DNA from: a virus
Lineage: Duplodnaviria; Caudoviricetes
DNA: 55,043 nt
Virus record (IMG/VR): IMGVR_UViG_3300048838_000123
Location: 1 to 55,043 of that record
Strand: one strand, 5' to 3'
Position 1 is the first letter of the stretch. The number at the start of each line of letters is the position of its first letter. The position numbers and the translations under genes were made by a program. Positions 3,175 to 55,043 of the stretch are shown here, one piece after another. The notes below the pieces were generated by a model. The model saw nothing but the letters and a program-made list of their open reading frames with translations, had not been told where the DNA came from and ran no database searches.

Positions 3175-4850
3175 TATCGTGATCCCCTGCTGCGCGTGTT
3201 GTTCGACGAACCACGCGAACCTGTGTTCCTAAACGAGCGGCGTGCCCGCACGCTGTGCCCGCCGCTACTTGGCGTTGGATAGTTTTCAGGTGCCGCGCTT
3301 GACGTTGGGAACAGCGATCCAATGAATGCAAGCACACCGCCTAGTGTACGTGTGGTCAGTTTAGTAACGCTGCCCATCGTGTCTAGCACACCCGCAAGTA
3401 CGACGCGCACAACTCGCGTCGCGGTGACTCCGCCACTACTATCCAACGTCCCTTCGAGCTGGCGGCTCGTCCGCTTGAGTAGGTCACCCGTACTGTTTAA
3501 CGTCGCAAGCAGTGACTTGTTCACGCGCAATGTAACAACGCCTGTCGAGACAAGACTGCCTTGCAACAGCGCCAAGAACGTCTTGATGGTACCTAGCGTA
3601 CCTCCCATCGTTAGCACACCCGCCACTGACGTCGCGACCTGTTTGTAAAGAACGCCCACAGGGGCAAACGCACCTGCGACGCGTGTGGCAGTCCGGCGTG
3701 CTACGGCCCCTGACATCGTAAGCGTTCCACTGATGGCCTGCAACACTGTTCGGATTGCGGCTAACGCGCCCGATGACGTTAGTGCGCCCGCCACTGACTT
3801 CGACGTGCGTTTGACTGCCGCACCACTGCTTGTGAGTGTGCCCGCCACTGACTTGCTTGTACGCTTCGCAAGTGCGCCTGCACTAGTCAACGTTCCTGCG
3901 ATCGCCTGCAGTACAACTCGCGTACTGGTTAGTACACCTGAACTTGTCAGTGAGCCTGCGACCGCCTTACCAACTCGGCGCGTCAGTGCCCCCGCAGACG
4001 TCAGTGCACCTGCGACTGCCTTACCTGCCCTGCGTGTCAACGCACCTGCGCTTGTCAATGAACCTGCAACCGGTTTGTTGGTGCGCTTCACAACGCTGCC
4101 TGCAGACGTTAGCGCTCCCGCCGTGGCCTTGTTTGTCCGCTTGGTGATCGCACCGCTGCTTGTCAGTGAACCTGAAACCGATTGCGGATACTCAGTTGGG
4201 CCGCCGGCGTCTGGCGTAAGCGCCACTTGCGCGCCCCAGTTAACACGCCAGTTGACAGAGAACGCGGCGTTCTGCACGCCTGTCGCGCCTGCACTTGAAT
4301 ACACCTTATCAGCCGCGTACACATTACGCCAAGCCATTTCGTGCTCGACGCGTTCGGTGTAGCCACTTGGGGGCGATACGATACCAGCAAAGGCATAGTC
4401 GCTGAAGCCGTAGCCGATGAACACGACCATCGCGTCGGCGACCGTCGTCGTGACTGAAGGGGCCTCTATTGATCCGATCGCCGAGCCGTTGTATTGAAAG
4501 GCGTGAACATCAATCGGCGACGACGTATCGACGCCCGAGTAACACAGCATCTCCGAGGCTGAGTACTCATCTGTGTTGCTCATCGTCCACGTGTAAGACG
4601 ATGGTTCACTCCCGCCGGCGACCTTATACCAAACGTGCAACCTGTGGCCGGCGTTCGTTTCTGGCGTTACCTCTGACTTGTAATCAATCTCAGTCCAGCC
4701 ACTTGGCGGCGTTGGGCCGGCGTCCTGCCCGTAGTACGTCATGGCGCATAACAGAAGGTCGTCTTCGGCCGTGCCTGACGGTTTCGTGATGACGTGAGAC
4801 GACCCCGAACTATGCGAGACGGATGTGGCCGACCTGAAAGAGATTGCCAT
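3174..4850 (-). CDS. Virion fibre/decoration-like protein: N-terminal beta-sandwich plus 16 tandem 18/20-aa repeats
   Basis: Repeats of type VAGxLTSxGAL-xxRxxK; translationally coupled to the adaptor gene. Confidence 0.6.
   Translation of the reverse strand: MAISFRSATSVSHSSGSSHVITKPSGTAEDDLLLCAMTYYGQDAGPTPPSGWTEIDYKSEVTPETNAGHRLHVWYKVAGGSEPSSYTWTMSNTDEYSASEMLCYSGVDTSSPIDVHAFQYNGSAIGSIEAPSVTTTVADAMVVFIGYGFSDYAFAGIVSPPSGYTERVEHEMAWRNVYAADKVYSSAGATGVQNAAFSVNWRVNWGAQVALTPDAGGPTEYPQSVSGSLTSSGAITKRTNKATAGALTSAGSVVKRTNKPVAGSLTSAGALTRRAGKAVAGALTSAGALTRRVGKAVAGSLTSSGVLTSTRVVLQAIAGTLTSAGALAKRTSKSVAGTLTSSGAAVKRTSKSVAGALTSSGALAAIRTVLQAISGTLTMSGAVARRTATRVAGAFAPVGVLYKQVATSVAGVLTMGGTLGTIKTFLALLQGSLVSTGVVTLRVNKSLLATLNSTGDLLKRTSRQLEGTLDSSGGVTATRVVRVVLAGVLDTMGSVTKLTTRTLGGVLAFIGSLFPTSSAAPENYPTPSSGGHSVRARRSFRNTGSRGSSNNTRSRGSR
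3312..4181 (-). repeat. Coding tandem repeat, 54/60-nt units
   Basis: Unit lengths in aa: 18,18,18,18,20,18,18,20,18,18,20,18,18,20,18,partial. Confidence 0.85.
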
Positions 4851-4855
4851 TGCGT

Positions 4856-5491
4856 TTAGCCGCCTGCCGTTAGTGTCAGCACATACGTGAACTGAATGCT
4901 GTCACCGCTGGCCACGTTGATGGCGCTGAACACGCTGCGGTCCCAAAGCGTGCCGCCACCAGTCGCCGCTTGGTTAAAGATGCCGTGTTCGGTGATCGCT
5001 GCGCTCGCGTCGAACGTCACCGTGCCGACAGTCTGGAACTGGTTCGCTGCGGGTGTGCTTCGCGTACCAGTCGCGCGCGTGCTGTCGGGGTTCAATGCTG
5101 TCGTGCTCTCGGTAACCAGAGCTGTGTCACCAACTGCCTCAGCTGTCGTGCCAGTACCGCAGCCGTGGAAGTTCATGTTGCTGATGTCTTGTGCGCCGTT
5201 GTTGAAGTCGTCGCGCAAGAACGTTACGCCCGCAGTCGTGATCACGCGTCGCGAAAGCACACCGTAGTCAACCCATGTACCATCTGCCTTGCGCATGCGA
5301 CCGCGCAGTTCACTTGTCAGCGTCACGGCGCCAGTCAGCTTACTGAAGCCACGCGCCAACACGTTGACGAACGCGCCCCAGATGTAGCCCCATCGAAGCA
5401 CGTTGCGCAAGCGCCAGCTAAGCGGGGCACGCGCAGCCTTGATGTGGCGAGCTGTTAGCGCTCCCGATGGTCGAATGTCCGAAGTGATCAT
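4856..5491 (-). CDS. Virion structural protein (collar/fibre-base type)
   Basis: GTGTTA...DTAL...ITEHGIF...F..INV.SGDSI..TY pattern common in phage structural proteins; AGGAG SD. Confidence 0.6.
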   Translation of the reverse strand: MITSDIRPSGALTARHIKAARAPLSWRLRNVLRWGYIWGAFVNVLARGFSKLTGAVTLTSELRGRMRKADGTWVDYGVLSRRVITTAGVTFLRDDFNNGAQDISNMNFHGCGTGTTAEAVGDTALVTESTTALNPDSTRATGTRSTPAANQFQTVGTVTFDASAAITEHGIFNQAATGGGTLWDRSVFSAINVASGDSIQFTYVLTLTAGG

Positions 5492-6493: not shown

Positions 6494-6784
6494 CTACATT
6501 CGCCGCATGAGTAGAATGCTTACGGCGCTAATGCCTAGACCTGCAACTATGCCAGTTGCGTTGAGTCCCCACCAAGCGACGCCTGCCCCAAGCCCTAGCC
6601 AAAACGAGATACAAGATACGCACTGCAGTCCGCGACGCCACCAAGTGTTGCGTTCGGGGATCCGCCAGTGCATGCGCGCGCGATCGAAGATGCTCGCAGG
6701 CCCTTCGTCACTGATGATCAAGACGCAAAGCCTGAACACCGCCAACGATAGAAGCGCGAAGACGATCGCGTCGCCGATAGTCAT
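6494..6784 (-). CDS. DUF1360-like membrane protein
   Basis: LAVFRL..LI..D.GP..IF..R and CxxC..FW motifs with TM segments. Confidence 0.7.
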   Translation of the reverse strand: MTIGDAIVFALLSLAVFRLCVLIISDEGPASIFDRARMHWRIPERNTWWRRGLQCVSCISFWLGLGAGVAWWGLNATGIVAGLGISAVSILLMRRM

Positions 6785-7083
6785 TTTGCTTCCGTCACTT
6801 TTACCGAGCTCGGCTTGATCGTAGCAGGCACAGGTGCGTCTGGCGCTGAGGTCGTTACGACTTCTTCCCAGCCCAGAGCAGCCAGTCGCTGCCAGTCACC
6901 ATTTGGTACCCAAATCGGGTCGACAGTCTTGCCGCCTTCGTATGTACCGAAGAAGCGAATGCCGCCGTCGACCTTGGTGTACTTCATGAGCTTCGCGCCC
7001 GGTATCTGCAACGCTTTGGCAACTGGATCGCCAGCGTCTGCTGCGGCCTGCACAGCCGCTGATTGTTGTCCACAGCATCCCAT
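6781..7083 (-). CDS. Putative nested in-frame 100-aa protein (MGCCG...)
   Basis: Internal ATG at 7083 preceded by ACAGGAGAAAAGAACCT; the SD is built from rare AGG-AGA codons. Confidence 0.5.
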   Translation of the reverse strand: MGCCGQQSAAVQAAADAGDPVAKALQIPGAKLMKYTKVDGGIRFFGTYEGGKTVDPIWVPNGDWQRLAALGWEEVVTTSAPDAPVPATIKPSSVKVTEAK

Positions 7084-8724
7084 AGGTTCTTTTCTCCTGT
7101 CGATGTATTCGCCGAACTCACGTGTAAGGTAGTCAGCGATGTCTCCGCGTCGCTTTTGCGCTTCGGCTCGACGCTGGCCTGAGTCCACGCGGTAGCACAG
7201 CAGCGGATCGTCGACCCACTTACCATGTACACCGCGCGCTGCGCACTTGGCGAAGAACGCCCAATCTTCAAACAAGTCGATGCGCGGGTCGAAGCCATCG
7301 AGTTCGACAAACGTCTGCCGCGCCATCAACACAGTCACTGCGTGCAGTCCATCTGTTTCAGTCGTCAGCCACACATGCGGATCGTACGGCCGTGGTCTGT
7401 CAGTGTGCTGCTTTGCTTTGTTGTCAGCCACAACCCACCAACCGCTGTAGATGTAACCTGCATCGCCTTTCGCATAGCGCGCTACCATCTTCTCGAGCGC
7501 GTCTGGTGTTAAGTAATCGTCGGCGTCCAAGAACAGTACAAACACACCGCGCGAGACTGCGACGCCTGTGTTGCGTGCATCGCCTGCTGGTGTGCCTGCC
7601 TTAACTGTCACCTCGGTCACAAACGGATACGGTAGTAACGGCAACTCCTGCCCCGACGCGTTAACGACGACTGCTTCCCAGTTCCAAAGCGACTGCGCCA
7701 GTAGCGAGTGCAACGCTGTCGGCAACAGGTTAACATGCTTCGCGCCGACTGGAATGATCACACTGACCAATGGCTTTGTGTAGTCGCGAAGCTCAGGCAC
7801 ACCGCCTGTCGGTGCCACCAGCGGCTTAAAGCCTCTGTGTATGTTCGACCACAGGCCGATGTCAGGTATGGGCCGACTTGACATACTCGGGCCGTGACGT
7901 CGATAGACAAAGATGGGATCAGGAGTGGCCTTGACGGCATCTGCCCCAACGCCGATGATCCTTCCCCAGAAGTCAACGTCTTCGGCTGCGATTCGGTTTG
8001 CGTCGTATCCACCTGCTCGCTCCCACCGCGACTTGCGAAACATACTCGCCACTGGAATGCACGTTCGCGGCGGGTTTGTTTGCTGCATCATCCAGTCCCA
8101 GTTGAACACCGGCGGGAAGTCATGATGCACTGTGCGCGTGTTGTCGAAGTTCTCGTCGAGTGTTTGCACACCTCCATACGCGACGCCCACGCTGCGGTTG
8201 TCGAACGCGGGCAACAGTCTTTCGATGTATCGCGGTTCGACCATGTCATCGCTGTCGAGGCACACGATCAACTCGTTCTCTGCGACTGCGATGCCAGTGT
8301 TTCGTGGCCCGCCAACGTTGCCTGTATTGCGTTCGTGCCGCAGCACTAGCGTCTTGATTGGAGCTGTGCTTGCCCACGCTTGCGCGATGTCGTAACTATC
8401 GTCAGTCGAAGCATCATCGACAACGATGATCTCGTCCGGCGGCACTGACTGTGCGGCCAGTGAGTCCAACGCTTCGACGATGTACTTGCCGTAGTTGTAG
8501 TTAGGCACGATTGCCGACACGCCAGTCGGGCGAAGCTTCGTTGCACGATGCCACGCTTCGAACTCTGCCTTGTCGCCAAACACAGGCACACGCATGTCGC
8601 GCAACACCGCTTCGCGCACCACTGCGTCTGTAGTGATCACAGCGTCAGCGCCTCGCAAGACCTTGGCGTCAGCGGCGGTTAAGTCGCTGCGACGTATCTC
8701 GGCTACAGCCCTTGCTGGTTCCAT
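6781..8724 (-). CDS. Tandem two-domain GT2 glycosyltransferase with extra C-terminal domain
   Basis: VSAIVPNYN...VVDDAS.D...LDSDD and VSVIIP...FLDADD...EDW; start refined to ATG 8724. Confidence 0.9.
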   Translation of the reverse strand: MEPARAVAEIRRSDLTAADAKVLRGADAVITTDAVVREAVLRDMRVPVFGDKAEFEAWHRATKLRPTGVSAIVPNYNYGKYIVEALDSLAAQSVPPDEIIVVDDASTDDSYDIAQAWASTAPIKTLVLRHERNTGNVGGPRNTGIAVAENELIVCLDSDDMVEPRYIERLLPAFDNRSVGVAYGGVQTLDENFDNTRTVHHDFPPVFNWDWMMQQTNPPRTCIPVASMFRKSRWERAGGYDANRIAAEDVDFWGRIIGVGADAVKATPDPIFVYRRHGPSMSSRPIPDIGLWSNIHRGFKPLVAPTGGVPELRDYTKPLVSVIIPVGAKHVNLLPTALHSLLAQSLWNWEAVVVNASGQELPLLPYPFVTEVTVKAGTPAGDARNTGVAVSRGVFVLFLDADDYLTPDALEKMVARYAKGDAGYIYSGWWVVADNKAKQHTDRPRPYDPHVWLTTETDGLHAVTVLMARQTFVELDGFDPRIDLFEDWAFFAKCAARGVHGKWVDDPLLCYRVDSGQRRAEAQKRRGDIADYLTREFGEYIDRRKEPMGCCGQQSAAVQAAADAGDPVAKALQIPGAKLMKYTKVDGGIRFFGTYEGGKTVDPIWVPNGDWQRLAALGWEEVVTTSAPDAPVPATIKPSSVKVTEAK

Positions 8725-9395
8725 GAAACCCCCACGTGTGCCCATGTCTCTGCAGTGTATGCATGCAACGGTACCAGAACGCTTATGCTGCGCCCCAAGC
8801 CCATGCACAGCTCTTTGCAGTGCCCACTATACAGCCATTCGGTCATGCCTGTTGGGTGTCCTTCAGGCAAGTACCCAAACACTTCGGTCCACTTGCGCGC
8901 ATGAATCAGATGTGGCCTGAAGCTCATCATGAACCGCTCTTCGCAGTCGGGATGCACACGCCAATAGCGATCTGAGTCTAGCGTCGCCGTGAACTTATAG
9001 TGGTCGAAGTGCTCGTCGCCGCGTGCATCCATCAGTAAGTGAATACGCACAGCACGATCGTCGTTCATTAGCTTCGCGACATGCTTGTCCAACTCGATCG
9101 GTGCCAACATGTGGTGGTCGTCATCGAGCCCCATTAGGACTTGACAACCTTCACTGATCGCGTACTTCCACAGCCTGTTAACGTTTGCGCCTAGCGAACC
9201 ACTCGGGTTACTCAGCACGTGCAAGTCAGGCCACAGCGCCGCTAGATGCTGTGCTGTGTCGTCATTGCCATCGCACCCTACGTAGTAAGATATCTCGCCG
9301 CTGTATCGGAGATATCCCTTCAGGCGTGCAATCGTATCGGCAACTATGTCACGCCTGTTGTACGTTGGGACAACTATGCCCACTCGTGGTTGCAT
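8703..9395 (-). CDS. GT2-family glycosyltransferase
   Basis: VGIVVPTYNR, CDGNDD, LGANVN, LDDD motif. Confidence 0.85.
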   Translation of the reverse strand: MQPRVGIVVPTYNRRDIVADTIARLKGYLRYSGEISYYVGCDGNDDTAQHLAALWPDLHVLSNPSGSLGANVNRLWKYAISEGCQVLMGLDDDHHMLAPIELDKHVAKLMNDDRAVRIHLLMDARGDEHFDHYKFTATLDSDRYWRVHPDCEERFMMSFRPHLIHARKWTEVFGYLPEGHPTGMTEWLYSGHCKELCMGLGRSISVLVPLHAYTAETWAHVGVSWNQQGL

Positions 9396-13176: not shown

Positions 13177-13636
13177 CGTTAATCTCCCGCGTCATAGTGC
13201 GCCTGAACTGCTTCTCGGCTTTGTCCACGATGATACGCAACGCGTGTCGTGGGCGAATGCCTGGGTGGTTGACCTCTTTGGCGACGACGAACATCTTACC
13301 TTTAGAACCCTTGACCGCAACGCTGCGACCAGGAATCGTCTTCGGCTTCCCGCCCATGAAGAACTTCAAACGGCCATTGCGCCGCTTGGGTCTGATCTTG
13401 TATGGCTTGGTACCTTCGTCAATCCACTTGACTCGCTTGTCACGAGTCTTGATCCGAATGTAGTCCTTACCGATCTTGGTCTCCCACTTAGGTTGCTTGT
13501 TCCACGTCTGCGTGAACTTGTCTAGGCCATCGCGAGCGACCTTCTCGGTCTCCTTGAACGACTTGTGCAGCGCCTGCTTCATCTTGAAGCCAGACGGTAT
13601 GCGACGGCGGGGCATGATAGCCTTGACCTTATACAT
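13142..13636 (-). CDS. HK97 gp10-like basic neck/morphogenesis protein
   Basis: WIDEGTKPYKIRPK...LKF...AKEVNHPGIRPR motif. Confidence 0.7.
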   Translation of the reverse strand: MYKVKAIMPRRRIPSGFKMKQALHKSFKETEKVARDGLDKFTQTWNKQPKWETKIGKDYIRIKTRDKRVKWIDEGTKPYKIRPKRRNGRLKFFMGGKPKTIPGRSVAVKGSKGKMFVVAKEVNHPGIRPRHALRIIVDKAEKQFRRTMTREINDAIERATASTE

Positions 13637-15555
13637 TACTTCTTCCGCTTACGCATCCAGCTACGTGGCGGCTTAGTCTGTGCCGCTCGCGTGATCTTCT
13701 CTGCGCCTGGGTAGTCTTCAACGTCAATGAACTTGTCGTTGGTCTGCATGTCGACGTTGCGCTGCATCGCCTCGCGTTGTGCACGGGTCATCTTCAGTGC
13801 CTTCTCGACCCAGTCTTGCGCCTTAGCACCTGATACGTACTTGGCGTAGATCGTCTTGTTACCGATCTGGAACTTGAGCGCCTTGCCTTTCGCCTTGATT
13901 GGGTGTCGTCCAAAGAGCACACTCCTGATGGCTACCTCAGGGCGGTTGGCGTTGCCAACGTACACCTTCAGCGTCATCGCGCGAGTGCCCTTCTGCTCAA
14001 CTTGCCAGCGTAGTGTCCTAGCGGTCTCACCTGTTCGCTGAGGGATCAAAGGCTGTGCTGCCTGTGTAAAGATCCGGCCGTACTCGGCGAAGTCTTTTGC
14101 AACGGCTTTCAGGTACGCCTCTTCTTCTGCCGACATCGGGCCACGCTTACGTGACTTGGGCACAGCCATGCTCAGGACCTCAGTCGCCTTGATGGTGACC
14201 ATCTCTCCTTGAGCCTGAGCCGGAGCGACTTGAGCCTGAGCCTGAGCCAACATTGGAGAGACCTGCTCTCCAGCCGTTGGCTTGTCATTTTCGTCGAGCT
14301 GCTCACCAAATGCGTTTGGATCCTGTACGACCTCCTCCGGGAGATCGCCTTCCCTCACAGCCATCTGTCTAGCGATCTCAGGCGTGATCTCGCCGGAGGC
14401 AATTTGAGCCGCTCGAGTATCAGCGCGGAGCTTCGCGATCTCAGCCTTGGCTCTCTGGTCGGCTAGGTCTTTCTCCGACCACGAGAACGTAGTACGGTTC
14501 AATGGATGCCAACGATCGGTGTCGTTAAAGAAGTGCAAGAGCTGTTCGCGTAGTGCAATCATGCCCTTGCTGTCTTGCTTGTCCTGCAACACCTGTGCCT
14601 GGCTACCTGCGCCCAACGATCGATTGCCGATCAGGCGTGGGTCCAAGTCAGTTGGATCGATGCCAAGTGCCGTCGCGAACTCGATCGTTACTTCCTGTTG
14701 GTGTGCCGATTGGTCGAACCAGTCAGGCAACGACGCGAACGGAATCTCGACCATGCTCACGCTCTGGGAACCTGTGTCGCCCCAGATCGCTGCACCAATG
14801 CGGGCAATGTTACCTGACACATCGGCCTGTGCTTGCGCGTCGGCCATCGCTTTGTTAATCGTGTCTTGGCGAATGCCGGCGACCAAGTACAAGCTCTGCG
14901 GCTTACGGCCTGTTGCCTTCTCTTTGAAGTAGGCAGCCACAGCCATCTGTTCGTAGATCTTGTCGTACACACGGCTCGTTGCACACAGCCCAACACCGTA
15001 GATCAACTGCTGTGGCATGTCACTGAACGCTGCAACCTGATGTGCGCGCAGGTCATGTAGCTTGCCAAGGCGATCAACGTACTGAACAGGGATCTCCGGA
15101 TCGCCTGTCCGCCAACAACGAAAGGTCGACAGCGGCACGAGGCCGAGCATCTTACTGCCTGGCGACTTGCTCGCACGCACAACCTCAACAAACGCACCGT
15201 TGTCGGTCGTGCACCAATCGCGTGCGATACTGGATGCCATTGGCGCCCAGTCGCGGTTCAGCATTGTCAACGCTTCTTTAGCACGTGCCTGGAACTTACT
15301 CTCGACATCGTAGCCGAGTGTAGCGATGCGTGTGCTCGCAATATGCACAGCGCTCGCCCACAAGCCACAATGGATGTAAGCGCCCCAAAGCGTAATGTCG
15401 CGATGCGGCGTCCAGTACTGTGGAAGCGTGTACGGCAAAGACCGAATCAAGGGGGCGTCGCCCATTGGTCGAAAGAACACAGCCGTGGGGCCGAGCTGTT
15501 CGACCTCTTCACGAGTCACGCTCTTCTTGATCAGGTCAGCGTCAATAGTCGTCAT
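13636..15555 (-). CDS. Portal protein with C-terminal HK97 gp10-like domain
   Basis: Start refined to 15555 (TGATG overlap with endolysin stop). DNGAFVEVVR, YGVG.CATSR, ALGIDP portal-like motifs. C-terminal PQRTGETARTL...LFGRHPIKAKGKALKF...IYAKYVSG. Confidence 0.8.
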   Translation of the reverse strand: MTTIDADLIKKSVTREEVEQLGPTAVFFRPMGDAPLIRSLPYTLPQYWTPHRDITLWGAYIHCGLWASAVHIASTRIATLGYDVESKFQARAKEALTMLNRDWAPMASSIARDWCTTDNGAFVEVVRASKSPGSKMLGLVPLSTFRCWRTGDPEIPVQYVDRLGKLHDLRAHQVAAFSDMPQQLIYGVGLCATSRVYDKIYEQMAVAAYFKEKATGRKPQSLYLVAGIRQDTINKAMADAQAQADVSGNIARIGAAIWGDTGSQSVSMVEIPFASLPDWFDQSAHQQEVTIEFATALGIDPTDLDPRLIGNRSLGAGSQAQVLQDKQDSKGMIALREQLLHFFNDTDRWHPLNRTTFSWSEKDLADQRAKAEIAKLRADTRAAQIASGEITPEIARQMAVREGDLPEEVVQDPNAFGEQLDENDKPTAGEQVSPMLAQAQAQVAPAQAQGEMVTIKATEVLSMAVPKSRKRGPMSAEEEAYLKAVAKDFAEYGRIFTQAAQPLIPQRTGETARTLRWQVEQKGTRAMTLKVYVGNANRPEVAIRSVLFGRHPIKAKGKALKFQIGNKTIYAKYVSGAKAQDWVEKALKMTRAQREAMQRNVDMQTNDKFIDVEDYPGAEKITRAAQTKPPRSWMRKRKK

Positions 15556-17531
15556 CAGAACTCCAAGAAGTCCATGTACTGCGACACGCCGTAGCCCGCA
15601 GTCCACTTAGGATCGTTCGGGTGGCCAGTGAACAAGCACACGCCCCGCATTGGCGATGGTTGGCCAAGCACAGGCTGGCTTAGCGTCTCTTTGATGACGC
15701 GGCACATGTCACGCACCTGCTCGCCAGTAAGGTTGTGTGCAGGCACACCTCCTACTCCGCCTTCATCGATGCCGCCTTCGCCACTAACGATCTTGCGCTG
15801 CTTAACATCGAAGCCGCAGTGCGTGAAGTACCAATGCCAACGATTGGCGAACCAAACTGGATCGATCCAACCAGATGCACGTGTAACCATGCGCGCGTTG
15901 TCTTGATCGACTTCGTCAATTGCCCAGCTGGCGCGATGGCCATTGCGACCAACGTTGCCAACTACTTTGACTTCGCGACCAGTCAGCGATCTGGACGCAG
16001 GCGGACGCATGTGCGCATTGGGCCAGTAGGTGTGGTAGTCCCACCAGAAGTACGCGTTGGTGTTATACAGCTGTGCGTACGTTGCCTTAAAGAACTCGGC
16101 GAGCTCTGGACTCAGGTCTGGATTGCCCATTGCGACGGCGCCACCTGCGTAGTGTTGTCCTGCGCGGGCACACATCTCTGCTAGGTCGCGTTCGATCGGC
16201 CAACGCTTCTTGTAGTCGTCGAGCTGCCAGCAACCGATCTGGTCGCCTTCGTTCATTGCTGTAACAATGACACCGGGATGGAAGGCCGACTTCAACATGT
16301 CGAACCACGCCGCTGCGGATGGCGATGAACCAGTCTGCGGTGTCCAACGACGGAACAGAACGCGACCGCCACGGGGCAGCACTGTGTCGGCAAGTCGCTT
16401 TGCAAAGACCTCGTCGTCGATTACAAGGAACCAGTTGGCACCTCGCGACGCTGCGTCTAGCGCAACGATCTGCGGCGCAGTACCGCCAGCGTTGGAGTTC
16501 AACATGTTGAAGCCGATACCCACCGCCTGTACCGGTGGGGGCGGCGGAGGCGGTGGGGTGCCAACAACAACACTTCGCTTAACTCGTGCGCCTGTCGACG
16601 TTACGATTTCAACGTTGTGTGTGCCAGCCGGAAGTGTGTGTGAACTGTGACCCTCCACGCCGTTACCGTTAAGGTACGCAGCCTGGACGAAGTCGATGTC
16701 AAGACGTAGAACGTTGTTCGTCACAGTCATGTCCCAGCGCCACTGGTGTTTGTTAACCAACGCCGGCGCCAAATGCGGCGACAGCTGTGGCGTGGGGTCG
16801 AAGATGTTGTTAGGCCACTTCTGTCCCTTGGCGTCAGTGTAGGTCTTGCCGACCTTCTTCAGCGTAAGATGTAAGTGGCTGCCTGAGGAGTTGCCCGTGT
16901 TGTTGGCGATGCCGATAAGGTTGCCCGCGAGCACCTTCTGGCCAACCTTAACACGCGTCTCGAGCAGGTGTGCATAGATCGTAACGTCGCCATCAGCATG
17001 CAGTAGCTGAACATAGCGACCATACGCGCCATCGGCGTTGTTGTCAGCGATCTGCACAGTGCCGTCGTCCACAGCCACGACCAGGGCACCAGTCGGCGCA
17101 CGCAGGTCAATGCCTTCGTGACCAGGCAAACCGAACTGTGCATAGGCTGCAGGGTTGGCACCGAACGGTTGTGTGACCACGCGCCCTTCGCCGGCAACGG
17201 GATAACAAGCGAAGGGCGCGCCAGGCGGTGGTACATCAGGAGTTGTGTCGCCTGACTCCCAGGAGAGGGGACCGGGAGCGATCACGGCAAAGTGCTTAAC
17301 GAGCGAGTCGATCTCGGCAGCACTATAGCCCCAGAAAATAACGTGTCGTGATTTGCTTGCCAGGTATTGCACACCCGCATCGACAAGATATACATTGCCC
17401 ATGCCATCGTGCAACGACCACATGACTGATTGGCGCGAGGTGAAAGCCTTCGCGAGGACCTCTTGACACTTGGCAAGAGGGAGTGCAGGATTGAGCAGAT
17501 GCACAACCCGATCATAGGTTACTTGGGCCAT
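15555..17531 (-). CDS. Endolysin: M23 peptidase plus C-terminal glycoside-hydrolase-like domain
   Basis: HEGID, YAHL, HLH (M23 HxxxD/HxH); poly-Pro linker; MNE...DYHTY...SGEGG TIM-barrel-like motifs. Confidence 0.85.
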   Translation of the reverse strand: MAQVTYDRVVHLLNPALPLAKCQEVLAKAFTSRQSVMWSLHDGMGNVYLVDAGVQYLASKSRHVIFWGYSAAEIDSLVKHFAVIAPGPLSWESGDTTPDVPPPGAPFACYPVAGEGRVVTQPFGANPAAYAQFGLPGHEGIDLRAPTGALVVAVDDGTVQIADNNADGAYGRYVQLLHADGDVTIYAHLLETRVKVGQKVLAGNLIGIANNTGNSSGSHLHLTLKKVGKTYTDAKGQKWPNNIFDPTPQLSPHLAPALVNKHQWRWDMTVTNNVLRLDIDFVQAAYLNGNGVEGHSSHTLPAGTHNVEIVTSTGARVKRSVVVGTPPPPPPPPVQAVGIGFNMLNSNAGGTAPQIVALDAASRGANWFLVIDDEVFAKRLADTVLPRGGRVLFRRWTPQTGSSPSAAAWFDMLKSAFHPGVIVTAMNEGDQIGCWQLDDYKKRWPIERDLAEMCARAGQHYAGGAVAMGNPDLSPELAEFFKATYAQLYNTNAYFWWDYHTYWPNAHMRPPASRSLTGREVKVVGNVGRNGHRASWAIDEVDQDNARMVTRASGWIDPVWFANRWHWYFTHCGFDVKQRKIVSGEGGIDEGGVGGVPAHNLTGEQVRDMCRVIKETLSQPVLGQPSPMRGVCLFTGHPNDPKWTAGYGVSQYMDFLEF

Positions 17532-17983
17532 CTTACGTTGGGTCTCCTACGTTGTACAATGTCGTGGAGGTCTTTGAATAGTCCACGTTGCTTGGCTGCG
17601 ACGACCAAGTGTGTCGCCTGCAGCTCGCGAGTGTCGCCTGCTGGTCGGTCCAGTGCCAGCTCCATCGCGAGTAGTTCGATCTCGTCTTCGCTGAAGTGTT
17701 CGTAGATCAATTGGCCAGTTGTCCACACCGCGTTGGTCTGGGTCGGCTTTATCGGCTGTTCGCCCATCTGCTCTAGCTGGGCTTCCAGTATAGCATTGCG
17801 GCGTTCAAAGTATTCAATTAAGTCGTGCGATGATCCTGCAGTGCGCGCTGCTGCTTCGGCTACATCACGTGCAGCCTGTGCCATTTCACTATCGCTGGTT
17901 CGCTGCTTGCGAAACAATGCTAACGCGCTGACTGCTATCGCCAATGCTGTCAGTATGTACGGGAAGATGGTTAGCGCGTCCAA
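17519..17983 (-). CDS. Single-TM coiled-coil protein with C-terminal effector-associated (EAD7-like, Death-like) domain
   Basis: N-terminal TM, then LIYEHFSEDEIELLAMEL...GDTRELQATHLV....RG....L..IVQRRRPNVRW. Confidence 0.7.
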   Translation of the reverse strand: MDALTIFPYILTALAIAVSALALFRKQRTSDSEMAQAARDVAEAAARTAGSSHDLIEYFERRNAILEAQLEQMGEQPIKPTQTNAVWTTGQLIYEHFSEDEIELLAMELALDRPAGDTRELQATHLVVAAKQRGLFKDLHDIVQRRRPNVRWPK

Positions 17984-18275
17984 TTGTGTATGCCGCCCCT
18001 CGCGACAATGCGATCAAGTACACAAGTAGCGCCCCCACAGCATGTATGTCGATTGCAATGCCCCAGTGCAATACCAATCTTGACATCTCAGGTCCTGTGA
18101 CCAACCCCCAGTGGTATGCATTAGCTACTAACAGAAACAGCGTCGCGTTGGCCAAGAACATAAGAGCCCAGATGGCCCACTTGGAACGCCAAGTGATGAC
18201 TAGCACACCCAGGCATACCAATGTGACGAACAGGTCAACGAGACGCAGGTACGGTACTACGGGAGCGTTCATCAC
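17889..18275 (-). CDS. Membrane protein (3 TM), holin/antiholin candidate
   Basis: Three hydrophobic segments; AAGGAGG SD; in lysis cassette. Confidence 0.6.
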   Translation of the reverse strand: MMNAPVVPYLRLVDLFVTLVCLGVLVITWRSKWAIWALMFLANATLFLLVANAYHWGLVTGPEMSRLVLHWGIAIDIHAVGALLVYLIALSRGAAYTIGRANHLPVHTDSIGDSSQRVSIVSQAANQR

Positions 18276-18604
18276 GCCTCCTTTCGTAGACTCCGCTCCT
18301 TCCGGCCTTCGCGTACTTCATAGGGAAGCGTAGCGGCCGTCAATGAACCAAAGCCCAACACCGTCGCAACGATGACGTGGTAGACAAAGTCAGCGATCGA
18401 GTTCAGCTCGCACGGTATCCCCTGGATCGCACGTCCACACGACAGGATGATGTACAGAACTCCGATCAACAATGCCACACCGCCTTTCACAGCTGCCTTC
18501 TCGTCATCGGGCAGGCTCGCTAGTTTCTTGCCGAGCGGCGGGATGACGGCGATCACAACTGCAATGCCGGTCGTTGTTAAGGTAGCCAGTTCAGTCGCGT
18601 TCAT
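18272..18604 (-). CDS. Holin candidate
   Basis: 110 aa, three hydrophobic segments, charged basic C-terminus, upstream of endolysin. Confidence 0.6.
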   Translation of the reverse strand: MNATELATLTTTGIAVVIAVIPPLGKKLASLPDDEKAAVKGGVALLIGVLYIILSCGRAIQGIPCELNSIADFVYHVIVATVLGFGSLTAATLPYEVREGRKERSLRKEA

Positions 18605-18605
18605 C

Positions 18606-20054
18606 TTATAGATACTCCTGGGCCATCCAGTTGGCCATGCTCAGGCACACCGCCGCATCGATCTTTAACGACTTCGAGCGCTTAACTAGTCGCAGGCGTT
18701 CGCGCTCTGTCGGGTCGACCTGTTTGTTGGCGTGCATGATGTGCGTGCGTAATGTTTCGTTGCCTGCGTGTGCGATAAGCTTGCTGATGATCCCATCGCG
18801 AAGCATCTTGTCTGACTTGAGTCGCAAGGCGTTCTGTTCGAATGGCTTGAAGTGGGCGTCAACGTGCCCACGCATCTTGGCCATAAACATGTGTAGCTGG
18901 TATGGGTCGTAAGTGACTACAGCGATGTTTGTGTCGCGTGCCAGTTCCTTGATTGCCTCGAACGGTTCGTCGAAGTCGATCTTACCGTTCTTCGGTGGCT
19001 TCCATTCCCTACTGCCGATTGCCAGCACACGCTGCGCACCTGCACGCTCGCGGCCCACCAACGTGAACGCAAACGAGTCATGGTCTGTTGCAGCGTCGAC
19101 AGCAAGCACATGCGGCTGGTTCGGGGGATAGGATAGCACAGTCGCATCGTCGCGTAGGCGATCCCACCAGACAATGTCGTCGAGGAACGGTGTGTCCTCA
19201 TCTGTGCTACCCCAGCCACCTTCGACGTAGACCTTTGCTTCTGCGTCGGAGAGCATCGAACTCCGGGTGTCGGTGTATCGCTGACTGAGCTGTGCAATGT
19301 TATCCCTTGTGTTAAGATTGAACGCCCGCGTTTGCGCCTTAAATGCAGCAAGCGGATCGTCCGGTTGCACAGGGCCGAACCAGTCGTACATCCAGTGCTC
19401 GCCTGGCGAACCTCCTCTAGGTGTACTAGAGAACATTACCTGCGGCGGGATGCCTCCTGGCCCTTCAATGCGTGCACGGCCAGCTAAGACCTTCACCATC
19501 TGGGCGGTCGGCGCTCGACGTACTTCATCGTACGCGCCGAAGTTGACGTTGCCGCCTTCCCATGCAATAGGTTCCTTGAACCCACCGCACATCAACTCTG
19601 TACCGTTAAGGAAGTTTAAGGTAAACTTGTGCTGGGGCTCCCAGTCTGGGTTTGCCCTGTAGCGCTGGCTGGGTACCACATGATGCCATGGACACCATTG
19701 CTGGAACTCTGTCCACAGCGACGTCCGGAAGTGCGGAAGGTCCGGCGATCCCATGATGCCGGTACATCCGCGTCGCAAACGTTCTAGTACCTTAATGACT
19801 AGCCAGGTCGTCTTACCTGAACCTTCTCCGCCAAGCGCTGCTATGTACGGTGTGTGGTCGTCCAGCAGCGCTTCTTGTTCTATGTCTGTGTGTGGTGCGT
19901 ATGTGCGACCTGTCTTCGCGTTAACGTAGATGCCGTCACTCTTGTCCCACGGCGTTGTCCGTTGTCGGTTGGTCGCCTTCCGGAGTTCCAGTTCCTCCAG
20001 CATTGAGTCCAAGGCGAGCAAGTCGTTCAGCGATGCGTTGCTTAAGTTGATCAT
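18606..20054 (-). CDS. terL: Terminase large subunit
   Basis: Walker A GGEGSGKT, Walker B FGAYDE, nuclease LAVD...D and KIDAAV; start refined to ATG 20054. Confidence 0.92.
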   Translation of the reverse strand: MINLSNASLNDLLALDSMLEELELRKATNRQRTTPWDKSDGIYVNAKTGRTYAPHTDIEQEALLDDHTPYIAALGGEGSGKTTWLVIKVLERLRRGCTGIMGSPDLPHFRTSLWTEFQQWCPWHHVVPSQRYRANPDWEPQHKFTLNFLNGTELMCGGFKEPIAWEGGNVNFGAYDEVRRAPTAQMVKVLAGRARIEGPGGIPPQVMFSSTPRGGSPGEHWMYDWFGPVQPDDPLAAFKAQTRAFNLNTRDNIAQLSQRYTDTRSSMLSDAEAKVYVEGGWGSTDEDTPFLDDIVWWDRLRDDATVLSYPPNQPHVLAVDAATDHDSFAFTLVGRERAGAQRVLAIGSREWKPPKNGKIDFDEPFEAIKELARDTNIAVVTYDPYQLHMFMAKMRGHVDAHFKPFEQNALRLKSDKMLRDGIISKLIAHAGNETLRTHIMHANKQVDPTERERLRLVKRSKSLKIDAAVCLSMANWMAQEYL

Positions 20055-20544
20055 CGGACAACGTCGACAGATTGATCTTGGTCTCCGTAGGCACAGCCGC
20101 ACGATCAAGGATCGACTTGGCTGCGGCAAGGGCATCTTCTGTGTTCAACAGTTGCACCAGCTTGACCGCTGCATCGGGAGCAAAGTACTGAAGCATGACC
20201 CTGGCTTCCATTGAAGCGCGCAGGGTAAGTTGGTTAACAAAGTCGTCATACGCTCCTGCCCTCGGTTCCCAGTCGTACAGCTGTGCTTGCCGCACCCAGT
20301 CAGTTACATCGTTTTTGGGTGCCTGGGTGCCGGCAGTCTTAGCCTTGGAACGGGCTTGCTGCACTGTACGGCTGGGACCGAGAGACACGTATAGGAGAAA
20401 CCTGTCATACCAAAGACCGTCTTCGTCTTCGCGGCGGCTCCACGGGCCAGGGGGAACATCGCTGGCGTCGAGTAGCCACAAGCGCTTAAACTGTTGGGCC
20501 AAGCGCGCCGAATCCGGAAGTGAATCTTCTGCTGACATGTTCAC
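19936..20544 (-). CDS. terS: Terminase small subunit
   Basis: Directly upstream of and overlapping TerL; W.R..E....Y..F..Y..LGPSR...W..RA.AYD pattern. Confidence 0.75.
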   Translation of the reverse strand: MNMSAEDSLPDSARLAQQFKRLWLLDASDVPPGPWSRREDEDGLWYDRFLLYVSLGPSRTVQQARSKAKTAGTQAPKNDVTDWVRQAQLYDWEPRAGAYDDFVNQLTLRASMEARVMLQYFAPDAAVKLVQLLNTEDALAAAKSILDRAAVPTETKINLSTLSDDQLKQRIAERLARLGLNAGGTGTPEGDQPTTDNAVGQE

Positions 20545-44748: not shown

Positions 44749-45485
44749 TGAAACTGGCATTGGTAATGCCCACAGCTCACCTGAAGCTGTTGAACACGCT
44801 CCGCATGGGCTACCAGGAGCTCGACTTGCAGCGCGTGCTGATGAAGGAACCTTGGTACACAACTATCTACCAGCGCATGCAGCATCGCGGACACTACATC
44901 ATCGCCAACGTTGGTCTCGCAGGTTCGCAGATGCGGCCAGGCGACATAACGAAGGCGCTGTCGATCTATGAACGCGAGATAGACGAGTTCGTGTTGCCGA
45001 GCGTACCTCGCGACATCAATGCAACGCTACGACTGGCGACTAGCGATGAAGCACAGCTCGTGGCTAGGCACACCCGCGTAATGGCTGTGCCGCAGGGCGC
45101 TACTATCGATGAATGGTTCGATTGCATGTACGCGTTAGTCGCAATGTTCAGCAGGGCAGTTGTCGCTGTGGGCATTCCAGCCTACTACGAAGACATCGGG
45201 CGCGCAAGGATCATCGAGCGCATTAAGGAAGACAATCTGTTACACGGCAAGTGCGTTCACCTGTTTGGCATTCACAACCATCCGCAAAGAGAGATACAGC
45301 AACTAGAACGCACTGGCATGGTGCGGGGTATCTCGACTGCGGTTGCATGTTCGTATGCACAGACAGGTCACGCAGTGTGGGCAGACAAGCCGGTCGAGCG
45401 CTTTGACATTGGCGCACGGCCGAACCGAGAACTAGTCACGAACAACATACACATACTACTGAGGTGGTGCAATGGCGGACGTTAA
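44748..45485 (+). CDS. DpdA/TGT-like paralogue, predicted catalytically inactive
   Basis: Start refined to 44748 (TGATG). Aligns end-to-end with the upstream gene but has IIANVG, VLPS and RGIST. Confidence 0.7.
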   Translation: MKLALVMPTAHLKLLNTLRMGYQELDLQRVLMKEPWYTTIYQRMQHRGHYIIANVGLAGSQMRPGDITKALSIYEREIDEFVLPSVPRDINATLRLATSDEAQLVARHTRVMAVPQGATIDEWFDCMYALVAMFSRAVVAVGIPAYYEDIGRARIIERIKEDNLLHGKCVHLFGIHNHPQREIQQLERTGMVRGISTAVACSYAQTGHAVWADKPVERFDIGARPNRELVTNNIHILLRWCNGGR

Positions 45486-47805
45486 CAAACACCCACTAGC
45501 GCGATGCAAGGAGTGCACACTGTGCTCACAGCCTTTCGTGCCTAGCGCGATCATCGAGACAAGTAAGCTTGTCGTCGTTGGCGAAGCGCCTGGCGCAGAA
45601 GAGGCCCAGCATGGCACACCCTTTGTTGGGCCCAGTGGCAAGGTACTGCGGGCTCTGATTGCCAAGCACGGTGTCGATCCTACAGCGCAGGCATCCTACG
45701 TCAACGTTGTGGCATGCAGGCCGCCGAACAATCGTGAACCTACCGACGACGAAAAGCAGGCGTGCAGGGCTCGCTTCACCTACGATCTAATGGAAGCGGG
45801 CGGAACGATCTTGGCAGTAGGGGCAACAGCTGCCGACGCACTGAAGACGACAGGCGAGAAGATCGGCAAGCGACGTGGGCTGTGGACTCGTGTGCAGAAC
45901 GATCGACCGATGATGACTACTTGGCATCCTGCCTACGTGCTGCGTAAGCAAAGCGAGATGGAGACGCTGAGCACTGACATCCGTCGGGCGATTAGCGGCA
46001 ACCAAGATGGCGTCGTGCCTGAACCGAACATCAGGATCATTCGAACGCGAGCGGAGCTGCAGTCACTTGTCGACGAGTTGAGCATCGCGAAGTACACGAT
46101 CGCGTTCGACATCGAGACAGACCAGCTGCGATGGTTCGATACGCCAACCGAACTTGCCGATCCCATCTTGATGTTGGCACTGGCATGGAGTGAACGCGAT
46201 GCAGCGATCATCTGCGACGGCCTGCTGTACGACATTCCAGGCGCGGCATCGTTAATCAACGAACTGTTCCACGCGCACGAGATGGTCGGCCACAACAGCA
46301 AGTTCGACGTTGTTTTTCTACGGGGGCAAACGCAGGTGAAGGCACGCGTCGACCACGACACGATGCTGATGCACTACGCGTTGAACGAGCAGCCAGGCAC
46401 ACACGGCTTGAAGCAACTGTCGAAGACGTACTTGGGCATCGATGACTACGAAGAGGAGCATGTGCAGAAGTACCTTCGCAGTCGCAACGATCAGTACAGC
46501 AAGGTACCGTTCGACGAGCTGAGCAAGTATGCCGCGATCGACGTGTGCGTGACGTGGCGACTGTTTCACCTGTTCAAGGCACAGCTCATTCAGCAGTACC
46601 TGTGGGATGAACCGTATCGCAGTTTGCTGATGCCACTGGCGCAAGCACTGACAGAGGTCGAGTTGAATGGCATGGCCGTCGACGTTAAGTACTTGAAAGA
46701 GGCGACCGACAAGCTCGAGCGCGAGATGGCCGAACTGGAGACGCAGATCAGAGAACTGGCAGGAGCACCCGAGCTTAACCTGAACAGCCCAGCACAGATG
46801 GCCAAGGTGCTGTACGACCAACTGAAGCTGCCGAATCCCAAAGGCAAGGACATCAACCCAAGAGCGACAAGCAAGGAAGCGTTGGCACAGCTCAAAGGAA
46901 CACACCCTATAATCGCGCTAATTGCGCAGTACAGGCGTGTCATGAAGATTAAGACCAGCTACCTTGATAACTTGTCGGACCGCGTCGATTCGAATGGACG
47001 TGTGCATGCAACGTTTCAGGTACACGGCACTGAGACTGGCCGGCTATCGGTTCGCGATCCTGCATTGCAAACGATACCGCGTGAAAGCACAGACGCATAC
47101 GGCAAGCTAATCCGCAACGCGTTCTGGGCGCCGCCAGGGACGAAGCTTGTAGTCGCTGACTACTCGCAAGCAGAGTTGCGGGTGCTCGGTGCGCTGTCAG
47201 GAGATGAGTTCCTGCTGGGTGTGTATCACGAGAAGCGGGATCTGCACACCGAAGTGGCGAAGGCGATCTGGGGCGACAACTGGACAAAGGAGCAACGCAT
47301 CCAGGCCAAGATGTTGAACTTCAGCGTCGCGTACGGCGGCAGCGAGTACTCGTTCGCCGAGACAGCAGGCCTGCCGCTAGACATTGCGCGTGAAGTAGTG
47401 CGCAAGTTCAACAACAGCATGCCGCGCGTGAAGCAGTGGAAGGAAGAACAGTTCAGGGCTGCCCGCGCACACGGCTATGTTCAGTCGCGCACTGGGCGGC
47501 GACGTCGGTTCCCTGTCATCGATCGCATAAACCTGGACGAGGTTCGTAAGGCATCGATCAACTCAGTGATTCAGGGGCTCGCTAGCGACATCACTGCCAT
47601 CGCAGCAACGAAGCTAATCAATGCCGGCTACAAGGTTGTGCTGCTGGTGCATGACTCGATCATTGTCGAGGTGCCAGAAGAAGCAGCCGAAGCAACCGCA
47701 CAAGTGGTGACTGACACGATGGTCGCAGTCGGCACGGTGGTGTGTCCTGAAGTCGCATGGAAGGCTGACTGCGACATCGTCAGTCGCTGGGGCGCGAAAT
47801 CTTAA
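45472..47805 (+). CDS. polA: Family A DNA polymerase with N-terminal family-4 UDG-like domain and 3'-5' exonuclease
   Basis: GEAPG/FVG/CRPPNNR/HPA; FDIET, HNSKFD, YAAID; DYSQAELR, AKMLNF..YG, VHDS. Confidence 0.95.
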   Translation: MADVNKHPLARCKECTLCSQPFVPSAIIETSKLVVVGEAPGAEEAQHGTPFVGPSGKVLRALIAKHGVDPTAQASYVNVVACRPPNNREPTDDEKQACRARFTYDLMEAGGTILAVGATAADALKTTGEKIGKRRGLWTRVQNDRPMMTTWHPAYVLRKQSEMETLSTDIRRAISGNQDGVVPEPNIRIIRTRAELQSLVDELSIAKYTIAFDIETDQLRWFDTPTELADPILMLALAWSERDAAIICDGLLYDIPGAASLINELFHAHEMVGHNSKFDVVFLRGQTQVKARVDHDTMLMHYALNEQPGTHGLKQLSKTYLGIDDYEEEHVQKYLRSRNDQYSKVPFDELSKYAAIDVCVTWRLFHLFKAQLIQQYLWDEPYRSLLMPLAQALTEVELNGMAVDVKYLKEATDKLEREMAELETQIRELAGAPELNLNSPAQMAKVLYDQLKLPNPKGKDINPRATSKEALAQLKGTHPIIALIAQYRRVMKIKTSYLDNLSDRVDSNGRVHATFQVHGTETGRLSVRDPALQTIPRESTDAYGKLIRNAFWAPPGTKLVVADYSQAELRVLGALSGDEFLLGVYHEKRDLHTEVAKAIWGDNWTKEQRIQAKMLNFSVAYGGSEYSFAETAGLPLDIAREVVRKFNNSMPRVKQWKEEQFRAARAHGYVQSRTGRRRRFPVIDRINLDEVRKASINSVIQGLASDITAIAATKLINAGYKVVLLVHDSIIVEVPEEAAEATAQVVTDTMVAVGTVVCPEVAWKADCDIVSRWGAKS

Positions 47806-54855: not shown

Positions 54856-55043
54856 CTCGATGGGCCACCAGTCGCCGCCGCCACGAAGCTGGTGTAGTCG
54901 CTGGCGGTCTTGATGCAGATGTATTGTACGTATACGACTAGATCGTTTGCATCTAGCTGTGCATCTGGATCGGCTTCAAGCATCGACGCACGGAACGCAG
55001 CCACTTCGGCCTTCTCGTCGTCCGTTAGCCGATGCTTGACACC
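54756..55043 (-). CDS. Tail assembly chaperone, C-terminal part (continues from 379..1)
   Basis: In frame with ATG 379 across the 127-bp overlap. Confidence 0.8.
   Translation of the reverse strand, partial: GVKHRLTDDEKAEVAAFRASMLEADPDAQLDANDLVVYVQYICIKTASDYTSFVAAATGGPSSPKSPSSSTNGKSEQTASTSGTILSDDPASPTR
54917..55043. repeat. Terminal direct repeat copy 2
   Basis: Identical to 1-127. Confidence 0.97.

Follow-up and report, generated by a model that had tools for sequence, protein, structure and literature searches.

LysF1b of the F1-cluster mycobacteriophages is a holin-like lysis protein of 124 aa. It has one transmembrane domain (TMD) in an N-out/C-in orientation, followed by basic residues and a cytoplasmic tail that is helical, and proteins of its class act alongside a multi-TMD holin-like partner. 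The lysF1b gene is reported to overlap the upstream lysF1a, which encodes a 2-TMD protein, by 4 nt, and its deletion to cause severe lysis defects (PMC13056207). The lysis cassettes of Gordonia phages are likewise described as encoding one-TM, N-out/C-in proteins of 79-145 aa, always together with other holin-like genes, while in the D29 holin a coiled-coil tail is said to matter for oligomerisation and timing (PMC9671378). Here we describe a phage protein of 154 aa with a comparable layout that carries, at its C-terminus, an effector-associated domain (EAD) of the EAD7 family. Its gene lies at 17519..17983 on the minus strand of the IMG/VR virus record IMGVR_UViG_3300048838_000123 (Duplodnaviria; Caudoviricetes), analysed over its full 55,043 nt and referred to below as the window.

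The protein is like LysF1b in being small (154 vs 124 aa), in its single N-terminal TMD with basic residues following, in its predicted N-out/C-in topology and in its extended helix. Its gene, too, lies directly downstream of, and overlaps, a multi-TMD holin-like gene within a cassette containing a signal-less lysin. It differs from LysF1b in possessing a coiled coil and a folded EAD7, in a lower proportion of K/R/D/E residues (30% vs about 50%) and in its hosts, which are probably Chloroflexota and not Actinomycetota. The likeness is one of layout and predicted topology, compared by description, and homology is not claimed.

In cellular organisms, EAD7 is described as a homotypic coupling adaptor that brings effectors to nucleoside triphosphate (NTP)-dependent conflict systems (PMC7159879, PMC8195603). 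The phage domain resembles cellular EAD7 (PF19960) in scoring above the Pfam cut-off and in being small, all-helical, non-catalytic and terminal, and homotypic association would be expected of it from the account given in PMC7159879. Unlike cellular EAD7, however, it is phage-encoded and has a TM helix and a coiled coil as fusion partners in place of an enzyme or NTPase; it has no second copy in the same phage genome (seven records searched), and lysis genes surround it where cellular copies have MoxR-vWA, STAND or GTPase cores. A broader likeness to the Death-fold superfamily (8ss1, CARD, DD, DED, PYD) is predicted at Z 8.3 to 5.2 over 62-79 aligned residues, again with homotypic assembly expected, although identity is 6-21% and four helices stand out clearly in the model, against six in the classic fold. 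Unlike Death-fold signalosomes, the predicted complex is a coiled-coil dimer with EAD7 docked on the partner's helix and not a helical filament. LypABC of Caulobacter is similar in that a Death-fold-containing system is tied to the lysis of a phage-like element; it is described as host-encoded and tripartite, with a peptidase and an ATPase (PMC13236601), whereas the protein considered here is a single small phage membrane protein with neither NTPase nor peptidase.

We propose that the 154-aa protein is a LysF1b-like, one-TMD membrane protein of the lysis cassette whose cytoplasmic Death-fold domain drives or regulates assembly, and we put the chances of this at about even. The observed and computed grounds are the identity of the domain, its fold class, the predicted topology, the conserved gene context, the single EAD7 copy and a self-association model; from this context and these models we infer the role in lysis, the partnership with a neighbouring 3-TM protein and the contribution of EAD7.

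The EAD7 gene and the predicted fold of its product

In the list of open reading frames (ORFs), the gene begins with TTG and encodes 154 aa, its stop codon lying within the coordinates given above. An earlier note made from the letters of the window had placed EAD7 at residues ~87-154, and the assignment is borne out by a search with the Pfam hidden Markov models: EAD7 (PF19960) matches residues 91-148 at E 4.7e-10 and 39.6 bits, over profile positions 3-62 of 62 and above the curated gathering cut-off of 32 bits. In a six-frame family search of the whole record the sole EAD7 place was 17540-17713 (E 6.9e-10), and the EAD7 scores of relatives run from E 2.6e-13 to 9.5e-17. Pfam detected no enzymatic domain in the protein, EAD7 being fused solely to the TM helix and coiled coil, and a dedicated search, whose negative outcome carries little weight, found no longer fused forms. 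The membrane anchor may itself act as an effector.

The closest support for the start comes from P0002, a protein of 152 aa and 73% identity that has the same first residues and a hydrophobic stretch over the first 25 residues, with conservative changes. Since P0002 preserves both features, we accept the TTG start and the N-terminal TM helix of the window protein. The database's own gene call for the locus, P0001 (141 aa), is 13 residues shorter at the start and truncates the helix.

Four regions can be distinguished in the protein, all encoded on the minus strand. The TM helix spans residues 3-26 (17906..17977); it is helical in the model and has a hydropathy of 2.27 over residues 6-24. A long cytoplasmic helix follows at residues 31-72 (17768..17893), predicted to form a coiled coil and modelled with a predicted local distance difference test (pLDDT) score of 61-69. 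The linker (residues 73-79; 17747..17767) contains Pro77, which is invariant in the family (alignments A1 and A7) and lies in the predicted dimer interface. The EAD7 Death-like domain occupies residues 80-154 (17522..17746) and is indicated by Pfam, the six-frame search, the model and the VIA structure comparison. The membrane-anchored protein with TM helix plus coiled coil pictured in the earlier note is thereby upheld, the TM helix being backed by P0002 and the long helix being present in the model.

The AlphaFold2 model was built on the A7 family alignment of 32 sequences and has a mean pLDDT of 80.9, with values >90 across residues 90-154. A model from the single sequence was discarded (mean pLDDT 52.1). 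In the alignment-based model the C-terminal domain comprises four helices at residues 80-96, 99-108, 119-132 and 136-146, with pLDDT 91-98 from residue 90. EAD7 is here a small, all-alpha, non-enzymatic domain at the C-terminus of the protein, as EADs are described in PMC7159879. The top row of the VIA wide search, which runs independently of Foldseek, was 8ss1, a bacterial Death-like domain (Z 8.3, root-mean-square deviation 1.9 A over 69 residues, model range 84-154). Death-fold domains (DD, DED, CARD, PYD and bacterial), counted from entry titles, supplied 31 among the 50 rows listed, and all 31 are among the 40 rows whose alignment covers the C-terminal domain. VIA carries the warning that a Z below about 8-13 may reflect a common helical arrangement; because 8.3 lies in that range, the fold call leans on the consistency of the list and not on the top score. 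The C-terminal domain is thus predicted to be of Death-like fold, as had been proposed in the earlier note.

Predicted topology and self-association

A single TM segment is predicted in the 154-aa protein, at residues 6-24. No lysine or arginine (K/R) precedes the TM helix in the window protein, and the motif RKQR comes after it. Within alignment A7, a TM helix is found in 26 of the 32 members, and without exception (26/26) these lack K/R ahead of the helix and have at least one K/R after it. As K/R are found solely after the helix, the protein is predicted to be N-out/C-in with EAD7 in the cytoplasm, a call made by the positive-inside (charge) rule alone. The remaining six A7 members have no TM helix; four of them begin at residues internal to their full-length relatives and a fifth just upstream. 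We considered a separate soluble class for these members and rejected it, the starts resembling late gene calls, which probably arise because overlap with the upstream ORF pushes gene callers downstream, as in the 141-aa call for the window.

Self-association was assessed by folding four copies of residues 28-154 with the family alignment, alongside three controls. The four-copy fold scored 0.67 compared with 0.00 for the best of the three controls. In the calibration set, 20 of 30 proteins solved as same-chain pairs reached the 0.67 mark, compared with 1 of 23 whose structures are of single chains. These figures are only a rough guide here, as a custom alignment and four copies were used while the calibration used two. 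Contact agreement among runs was at least 58% and partner pLDDT at least 80. The predicted interface is a parallel, in-register coiled coil with its closest contacts at 63:63, 66:66 and 70:70, and the linker (residues 75, 77-78) and EAD7 residues 83-87 and 115-132 pack on the helix of the partner. Q69, which is nearly invariant, and the invariant P77 both fall in this interface. The model supports self-association of the 154-aa protein. Each of the seven phage records searched has exactly one EAD7 match (7/7), so that the sole homotypic partner available within the phage is the EAD7 protein itself.

Conserved position of the EAD7 gene in phage lysis cassettes

On the minus strand of the window the order is small terminase, TerL, a 110-aa protein, a 128-aa protein, the EAD7 gene, a 658-aa lysin and portal, with overlaps of 4 nt (110-aa/128-aa), 95 nt (128-aa/EAD7) and 13 nt (EAD7/lysin). 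The gene had been described as packed between holin candidates and the endolysin, and this stands, with TM proteins of 110 and 128 aa upstream and an M23 protein of 658 aa downstream.

A scan of 1.84 billion representative proteins returned 13 matches at E <= 0.001, including the window's own protein. Eight were small (129-187 aa) and aligned over most of their length; four were longer (296-740 aa) and matched via EAD7 repeats alone, two of these having an N-terminal ATPase. A profile search raised the small members to 25 in all, and the family can be summarised as TM/coiled-coil/EAD7 proteins of about 150-190 aa. The nearest Atlas clusters, taken as a lead, are EAD7 proteins of ~170 aa with 53, 55 and 79 members, of which 80%, 63% and 50% are viral, as counted among the 8-10 members per cluster with a known phylum.

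Nine further phage records (L002-L007, L011, L012 and NZ_LN890657.1) carry the family and, together with the window, represent six lineages, across which the EAD7 proteins are 24-39% identical. These nine records, on which our view of gene context depends, were found by pattern scans that miss distant members, and for several of the IMG/VR records CheckV estimates a completeness of about half. In all six lineages a wall hydrolase, a small holin-like TM gene or both occur no more than three genes away from the EAD7 gene, and in five of the six a multi-TM gene is found immediately upstream.

The arrangement closest to that of the window is seen in L005/L006 and L007 (two lineages), where a 97/98-aa homologue of the 110-aa protein, a homologous 3-TM gene and the EAD7 gene lie upstream of terminase and portal. 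Directly after the EAD7 gene of L007 there is an ORF of 135 aa (4460-4867) with a positive N-terminus, one TM segment and a coiled-coil-like region; by its sequence it looks spanin-like, with a predicted topology opposite to that of the EAD7 protein. A shorter relative of 80 aa is found in L005 at 8402-8644. In L003/L002/L004 the order is a tail-fibre gene, a 116-aa multi-TM gene (4-nt overlap), the EAD7 gene, a gene for a 98-aa holin-like protein, an exonuclease and a GH25 protein of 1128 aa. The interval 10657-11136 of L003 was considered as a gene and set aside, its frame being probably the wrong one; in L004 it is the 98-aa holin-like protein that is encoded just past the EAD7 gene.

The record NZ_LN890657.1, deposited as plasmid III of the filamentous Chloroflexota Ca. 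Promineifilum breve strain Cfx-K, is circular and 40,759 bp in length. Its annotations include small and large terminase, a phage protease, capsid cement and major capsid proteins and, given these phage genes and the lysis cluster, we regard it as a phage genome (or phage-plasmid). There the EAD7 gene (E 4.9e-12) comes after a 98-aa 3-TM gene (4-nt overlap) and before genes for a beta-helix protein of 491 aa and a holin of 81 aa, the last matching phrog_565 (E 1.5e-6) and, at 25.4 bits and below the cut-off of 27, Pfam Phage_holin_9. In L011/L012 two genes come next after the EAD7 gene: one for a protein of 965 aa and, beyond it, one whose 105-aa product is related to the Promineifilum holin (E 8e-9). 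The larger protein combines an M23-like region (E 3e-10 to the window lysin) with a domain common to the GH25 protein (E 1e-34).

No EAD7-family member was detected in 50,697 deposited phage records using the window protein and the Promineifilum homologue as queries. Several further pattern scans were also negative, all of these searches being able to detect fairly close relatives only. In the deposited phage collection the window portal found no relatives, alignments A2 and A4 found no copy of the family when run over one genome per species, and no relatives were returned from viral contigs (window protein, TerL, P0003 and alignment A2) or from metagenome contigs (window protein and P0012). 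The host group is, on sequence grounds, probably filamentous Chloroflexota, based on one named record (Ca. Promineifilum breve) and one look-alike lead (the lysin C-terminal domain). The suggestion in the earlier note that these are Chloroflexota phages gains support from the Promineifilum record, the lysin look-alikes counting as a lead.

The window carries an exact direct terminal repeat of 127 nt (1-127 and 54917-55043) and is a complete phage genome of about 54.9 kb, despite a CheckV completeness estimate of 67%. No tRNA genes were found in it. The cassette, all on the minus strand, is bounded upstream by the large terminase (18606..20135; Pfam TerL_nuclease and PHROG terminase large subunit). 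It begins with the 110-aa holin candidate (18272..18604), which has three predicted TM segments and a charged C-terminal tail and shares a 4-nt overlap, GTGA, with the next gene. A homologue of this protein occurs in L005/L006 (E 1.8e-4), and members of its family, similar to one another at E about 1e-20, adjoin the EAD7 gene in L007 and L004. The 128-aa protein (17889..18275), with 3-4 predicted TM segments, is the likely membrane partner of the EAD7 protein; the last 95 nt of its gene overlap the EAD7 start in another frame, and the genes at the corresponding position of L005 and L007 are homologous to it (blastp E about 1e-6). This protein belongs to no Pfam, PHROG, NCBIfam or PADLOC family. 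As holin family models do not match, the label 'holin' in the window rests on size, TM count and position.

Downstream, the putative endolysin of 658 aa (15555..17531) comprises an M23 domain and a C-terminal domain resembling TIM-barrel glycosidases, with a poly-Pro linker between them. The M23 peptidase lies at residues 137-229 (Pfam E 5.1e-24) and is accompanied by PHROG endolysin/peptidase and NCBIfam peptidoglycan endopeptidase matches. Residues 340-658 have TIM-barrel glycosidase look-alikes, and their nearest Atlas clusters, again a lead, are commonest in Chloroflexota or Armatimonadota. No TM or signal segment is predicted in the lysin which, having no export signal, needs a holin. The portal (13636..15606; PHROG portal, 51% identical to that of L005) forms the downstream boundary.

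Several further features of the overlapping genes were observed. The 128-aa gene has two adjacent starts, GTG at 18273-18275 and ATG at 18270-18272, with no charged residue between them. Adjacent double starts are a layout known from dual-start holin genes. The stop of the 128-aa ORF (17889-17891) is followed, 4 nt beyond, by an in-frame ATG of the EAD7 gene (Met34, 17884). Termination-reinitiation at Met34 could yield a soluble coiled-coil/EAD7 product without the anchor, comparable to one-gene holin/antiholin pairs; the layout is not kept in L005 and L007, where the upstream ORF ends 308 and 230 nt into the EAD7 gene. A frameshift fusion of the 3-TM and EAD7 ORFs was rejected as unnecessary because every full-length member shows a conserved start and a TM helix belonging to the EAD7 frame itself; that the tail of the 3-TM ORF ends at differing places in L005 and L007 also weighs against it. 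The first five residues of the window EAD7 protein (17969-17983), which precede its TM helix, are the same as those ahead of the first TM helix in the 3-TM proteins of L005 (7613-7627) and L007 (3678-3692), which may be due to chance or may be a trace of an EAD7 anchor derived from the neighbouring gene.

Elsewhere in the window, positions 45472-47805 encode a family A DNA polymerase with an N-terminal domain of the uracil-DNA glycosylase superfamily ahead of the 3'-5' exonuclease, and positions 6781-8808 a family 2 glycosyltransferase of 675 aa within the arm of virion genes. A glycosyltransferase adjoins the capsid genes of the Promineifilum phage too.

A proposed lysis role and its alternatives

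If the 154-aa protein does act in lysis, its short N-terminus would lie outside and its single helix would anchor it in the cytoplasmic membrane. The cytoplasmic parallel coiled coil would form at least a dimer, the EAD7 of each chain packing on the coiled coil of its partner. The protein would act with the 110-aa holin candidate and the 128-aa 3-TM protein to set the time of the membrane breach that lets the cytoplasmic M23/glycosidase-like lysin reach the wall. Homotypic self-association is the usual job of Death-fold adaptors. EAD7 would accordingly be envisaged as supplying cooperative homotypic self-association on the inner membrane face, which may either cluster the holin partners or restrain them until a threshold is reached.

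A number of observations weigh against this proposal. The cytoplasmic part of the protein is 30% K/R/D/E (39/130 residues), whereas about 50% is reported for LysF1b, and the one-TM proteins of Gordonia phages are reported to be without coiled coils (PMC9671378). Searches of Pfam, PHROGs and NCBIfam gave no holin model for the 110-, 128- or 154-aa protein, the best holin row for the 154-aa protein being phrog_1350 at E 0.26. No M23 or GH25 gene was found in L005 or L007, records estimated by CheckV to be 57% and 48% complete. L011/L012 have no multi-TM gene directly upstream of the EAD7 gene, and the 3-TM partnership is therefore not universal. The predicted complex is a closed coiled-coil dimer and no filament or higher-order Death-fold assembly. 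The top Z of 8.3 is moderate for a helical domain and within the range where a common helical arrangement is possible. Foldseek gave no match in the PDB at E <= 0.001, its best rows (E about 1) including Apaf-1/caspase-9 CARD chains, and none at that threshold in the viral library BFVD, where nothing fell below E 0.27. Finally, EAD7 is described in PMC7159879 and PMC8195603 from immune-type systems only; for this reason, host-directed roles stay plausible.

The membrane-tethered EAD7 might, for instance, be an anti-defence decoy that binds the EAD7 of a host NTPase sensor or effector, keeps that host protein at the membrane and so blocks the assembly of an abortive-infection response while virions are finished. 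This would accord with the homotypic coupling performed by cellular EAD7, and long proteins combining an ATPase with three EAD7 repeats (P0009 and P0013) are among the matches of the window protein. Moreover, filamentous Chloroflexota, the likely hosts, belong to the multicellular bacteria in which such systems are said to abound (PMC7159879), and a phage without a second EAD7 would have to find any heterotypic partner in its host. A decoy would, however, need neither the TM helix, the coiled coil nor the holin-like/lysin neighbourhood, all of which are kept in six lineages at 24-39% identity, and the position of the gene in a late operon is also at odds with it. Recent mimicry of a host copy is not indicated, since the nearest relatives are phage proteins (P0003, E 2.6e-22) and the best cellular match reaches E 3.4e-5 with 29-32% identity. 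PADLOC has no model matching the three small cassette proteins or P0012. On balance we regard a decoy as unlikely. The same adaptor logic (PMC7159879) would also allow the phage EAD7 to draw a host EAD7-linked effector, such as a peptidase, nuclease or pore former, to the membrane late in infection and so aid lysis, and the CARD-NLR-like LypABC of Caulobacter, reported as essential for gene transfer agent lysis (PMC13236601), is a precedent. We nevertheless hold such a hijack to be improbable: holin candidates and a two-domain lysin are already supplied by the phage genome, there is no known host partner, and the conserved anchor, coiled coil and lysis context weigh here as they do for the decoy.

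The remaining alternatives concern the protein's class. Rz-type i-spanins combine a TM helix with a coiled coil within about 150-180 aa, as the EAD7 protein does, and the N-terminal 65 residues of the Promineifilum homologue have weak matches to Rz-like PHROGs (phrog_89, E 5.1e-4; phrog_739, E 1.9e-3), which would suit an N-in/C-out protein whose coiled coil and C-terminal domain lie outside and link the envelope layers at the last step of lysis. The charge rule, however, gives the opposite topology in 26 of 26 TM-bearing members, and EAD7 is elsewhere described as fused to cytoplasmic NTPases (PMC7159879, PMC8195603). The window protein itself has no spanin PHROG match, and a lipobox-like signal was found in none of the 44 ORFs of at least 30 aa between 15001 and 18700, leaving no o-spanin candidate there; we consider an i-spanin very unlikely. 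The gene might otherwise be defence or exclusion cargo, encoding an effector that damages the membrane when a host EAD7 sensor sets it off against other phages, with its lysis neighbours incidental. Small membrane effectors are common in abortive-infection systems. EAD-linked effectors are, in addition, often encoded away from their sensors (PMC7159879). Against this, the gene keeps a fixed place amid tightly overlapping late lysis genes in six lineages, unlike a cargo island; the negative PADLOC result applies here too, and no copy was seen in the two scans of one genome per species, within their reach of fairly close relatives. Cargo of this kind therefore appears highly improbable.

Returning to the proposed lysis protein, the earlier note had floated three roles for the domain: a decoy, a recruiter of host effectors and an oligomer that times lysis. 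The last of these fits best, being consistent with the lysis context conserved in 6/6 lineages, the one EAD7 copy and the self-association fold. On a wider view, it is possible, though we hold this tentatively, that a Death-fold adaptor of bacterial death and immunity has become a conserved lysis part in phages, probably those of filamentous Chloroflexota. As a coiled-coil dimer tethered to the membrane, it might there provide holin triggering of the nucleation-limited, all-or-none kind seen in Death-fold signalosomes, or a lysis clock wired to host EAD7 effectors that are either blocked until assembly is done or borrowed.

The combination itself is an undescribed one, conserved and mostly viral, of a known domain with a known class of lysis protein. 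A literature search returned no paper pairing 'effector-associated domain' with 'holin' and, among the top-ranked papers, none pairing 'effector-associated domain' or 'death-like' with a lysis term. A search of PMC7159879 and PMC8195603 by phage and holin terms, their supplementary architecture tables lying outside it, found no phage-encoded EAD.

The family represents a branch of EAD7 that is borne by phages and fixed in lysis cassettes across several lineages. Should the lysis role prove true, EAD7 would be a new kind of cytoplasmic module for holin systems, and would offer a tractable route to ask whether Death-fold assembly serves as a timer in bacteria. If EAD7 instead engages host EAD7 systems, such immunity would have in this protein its first candidate inhibitor or hijacker from a virus. 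The phage genome from Ca. Promineifilum breve, a sludge-bulking filament, provides a named starting point for experiments. An adaptor common to phage lysis and bacterial 'apoptotic' immunity would, furthermore, raise the question of which of the two invented it.

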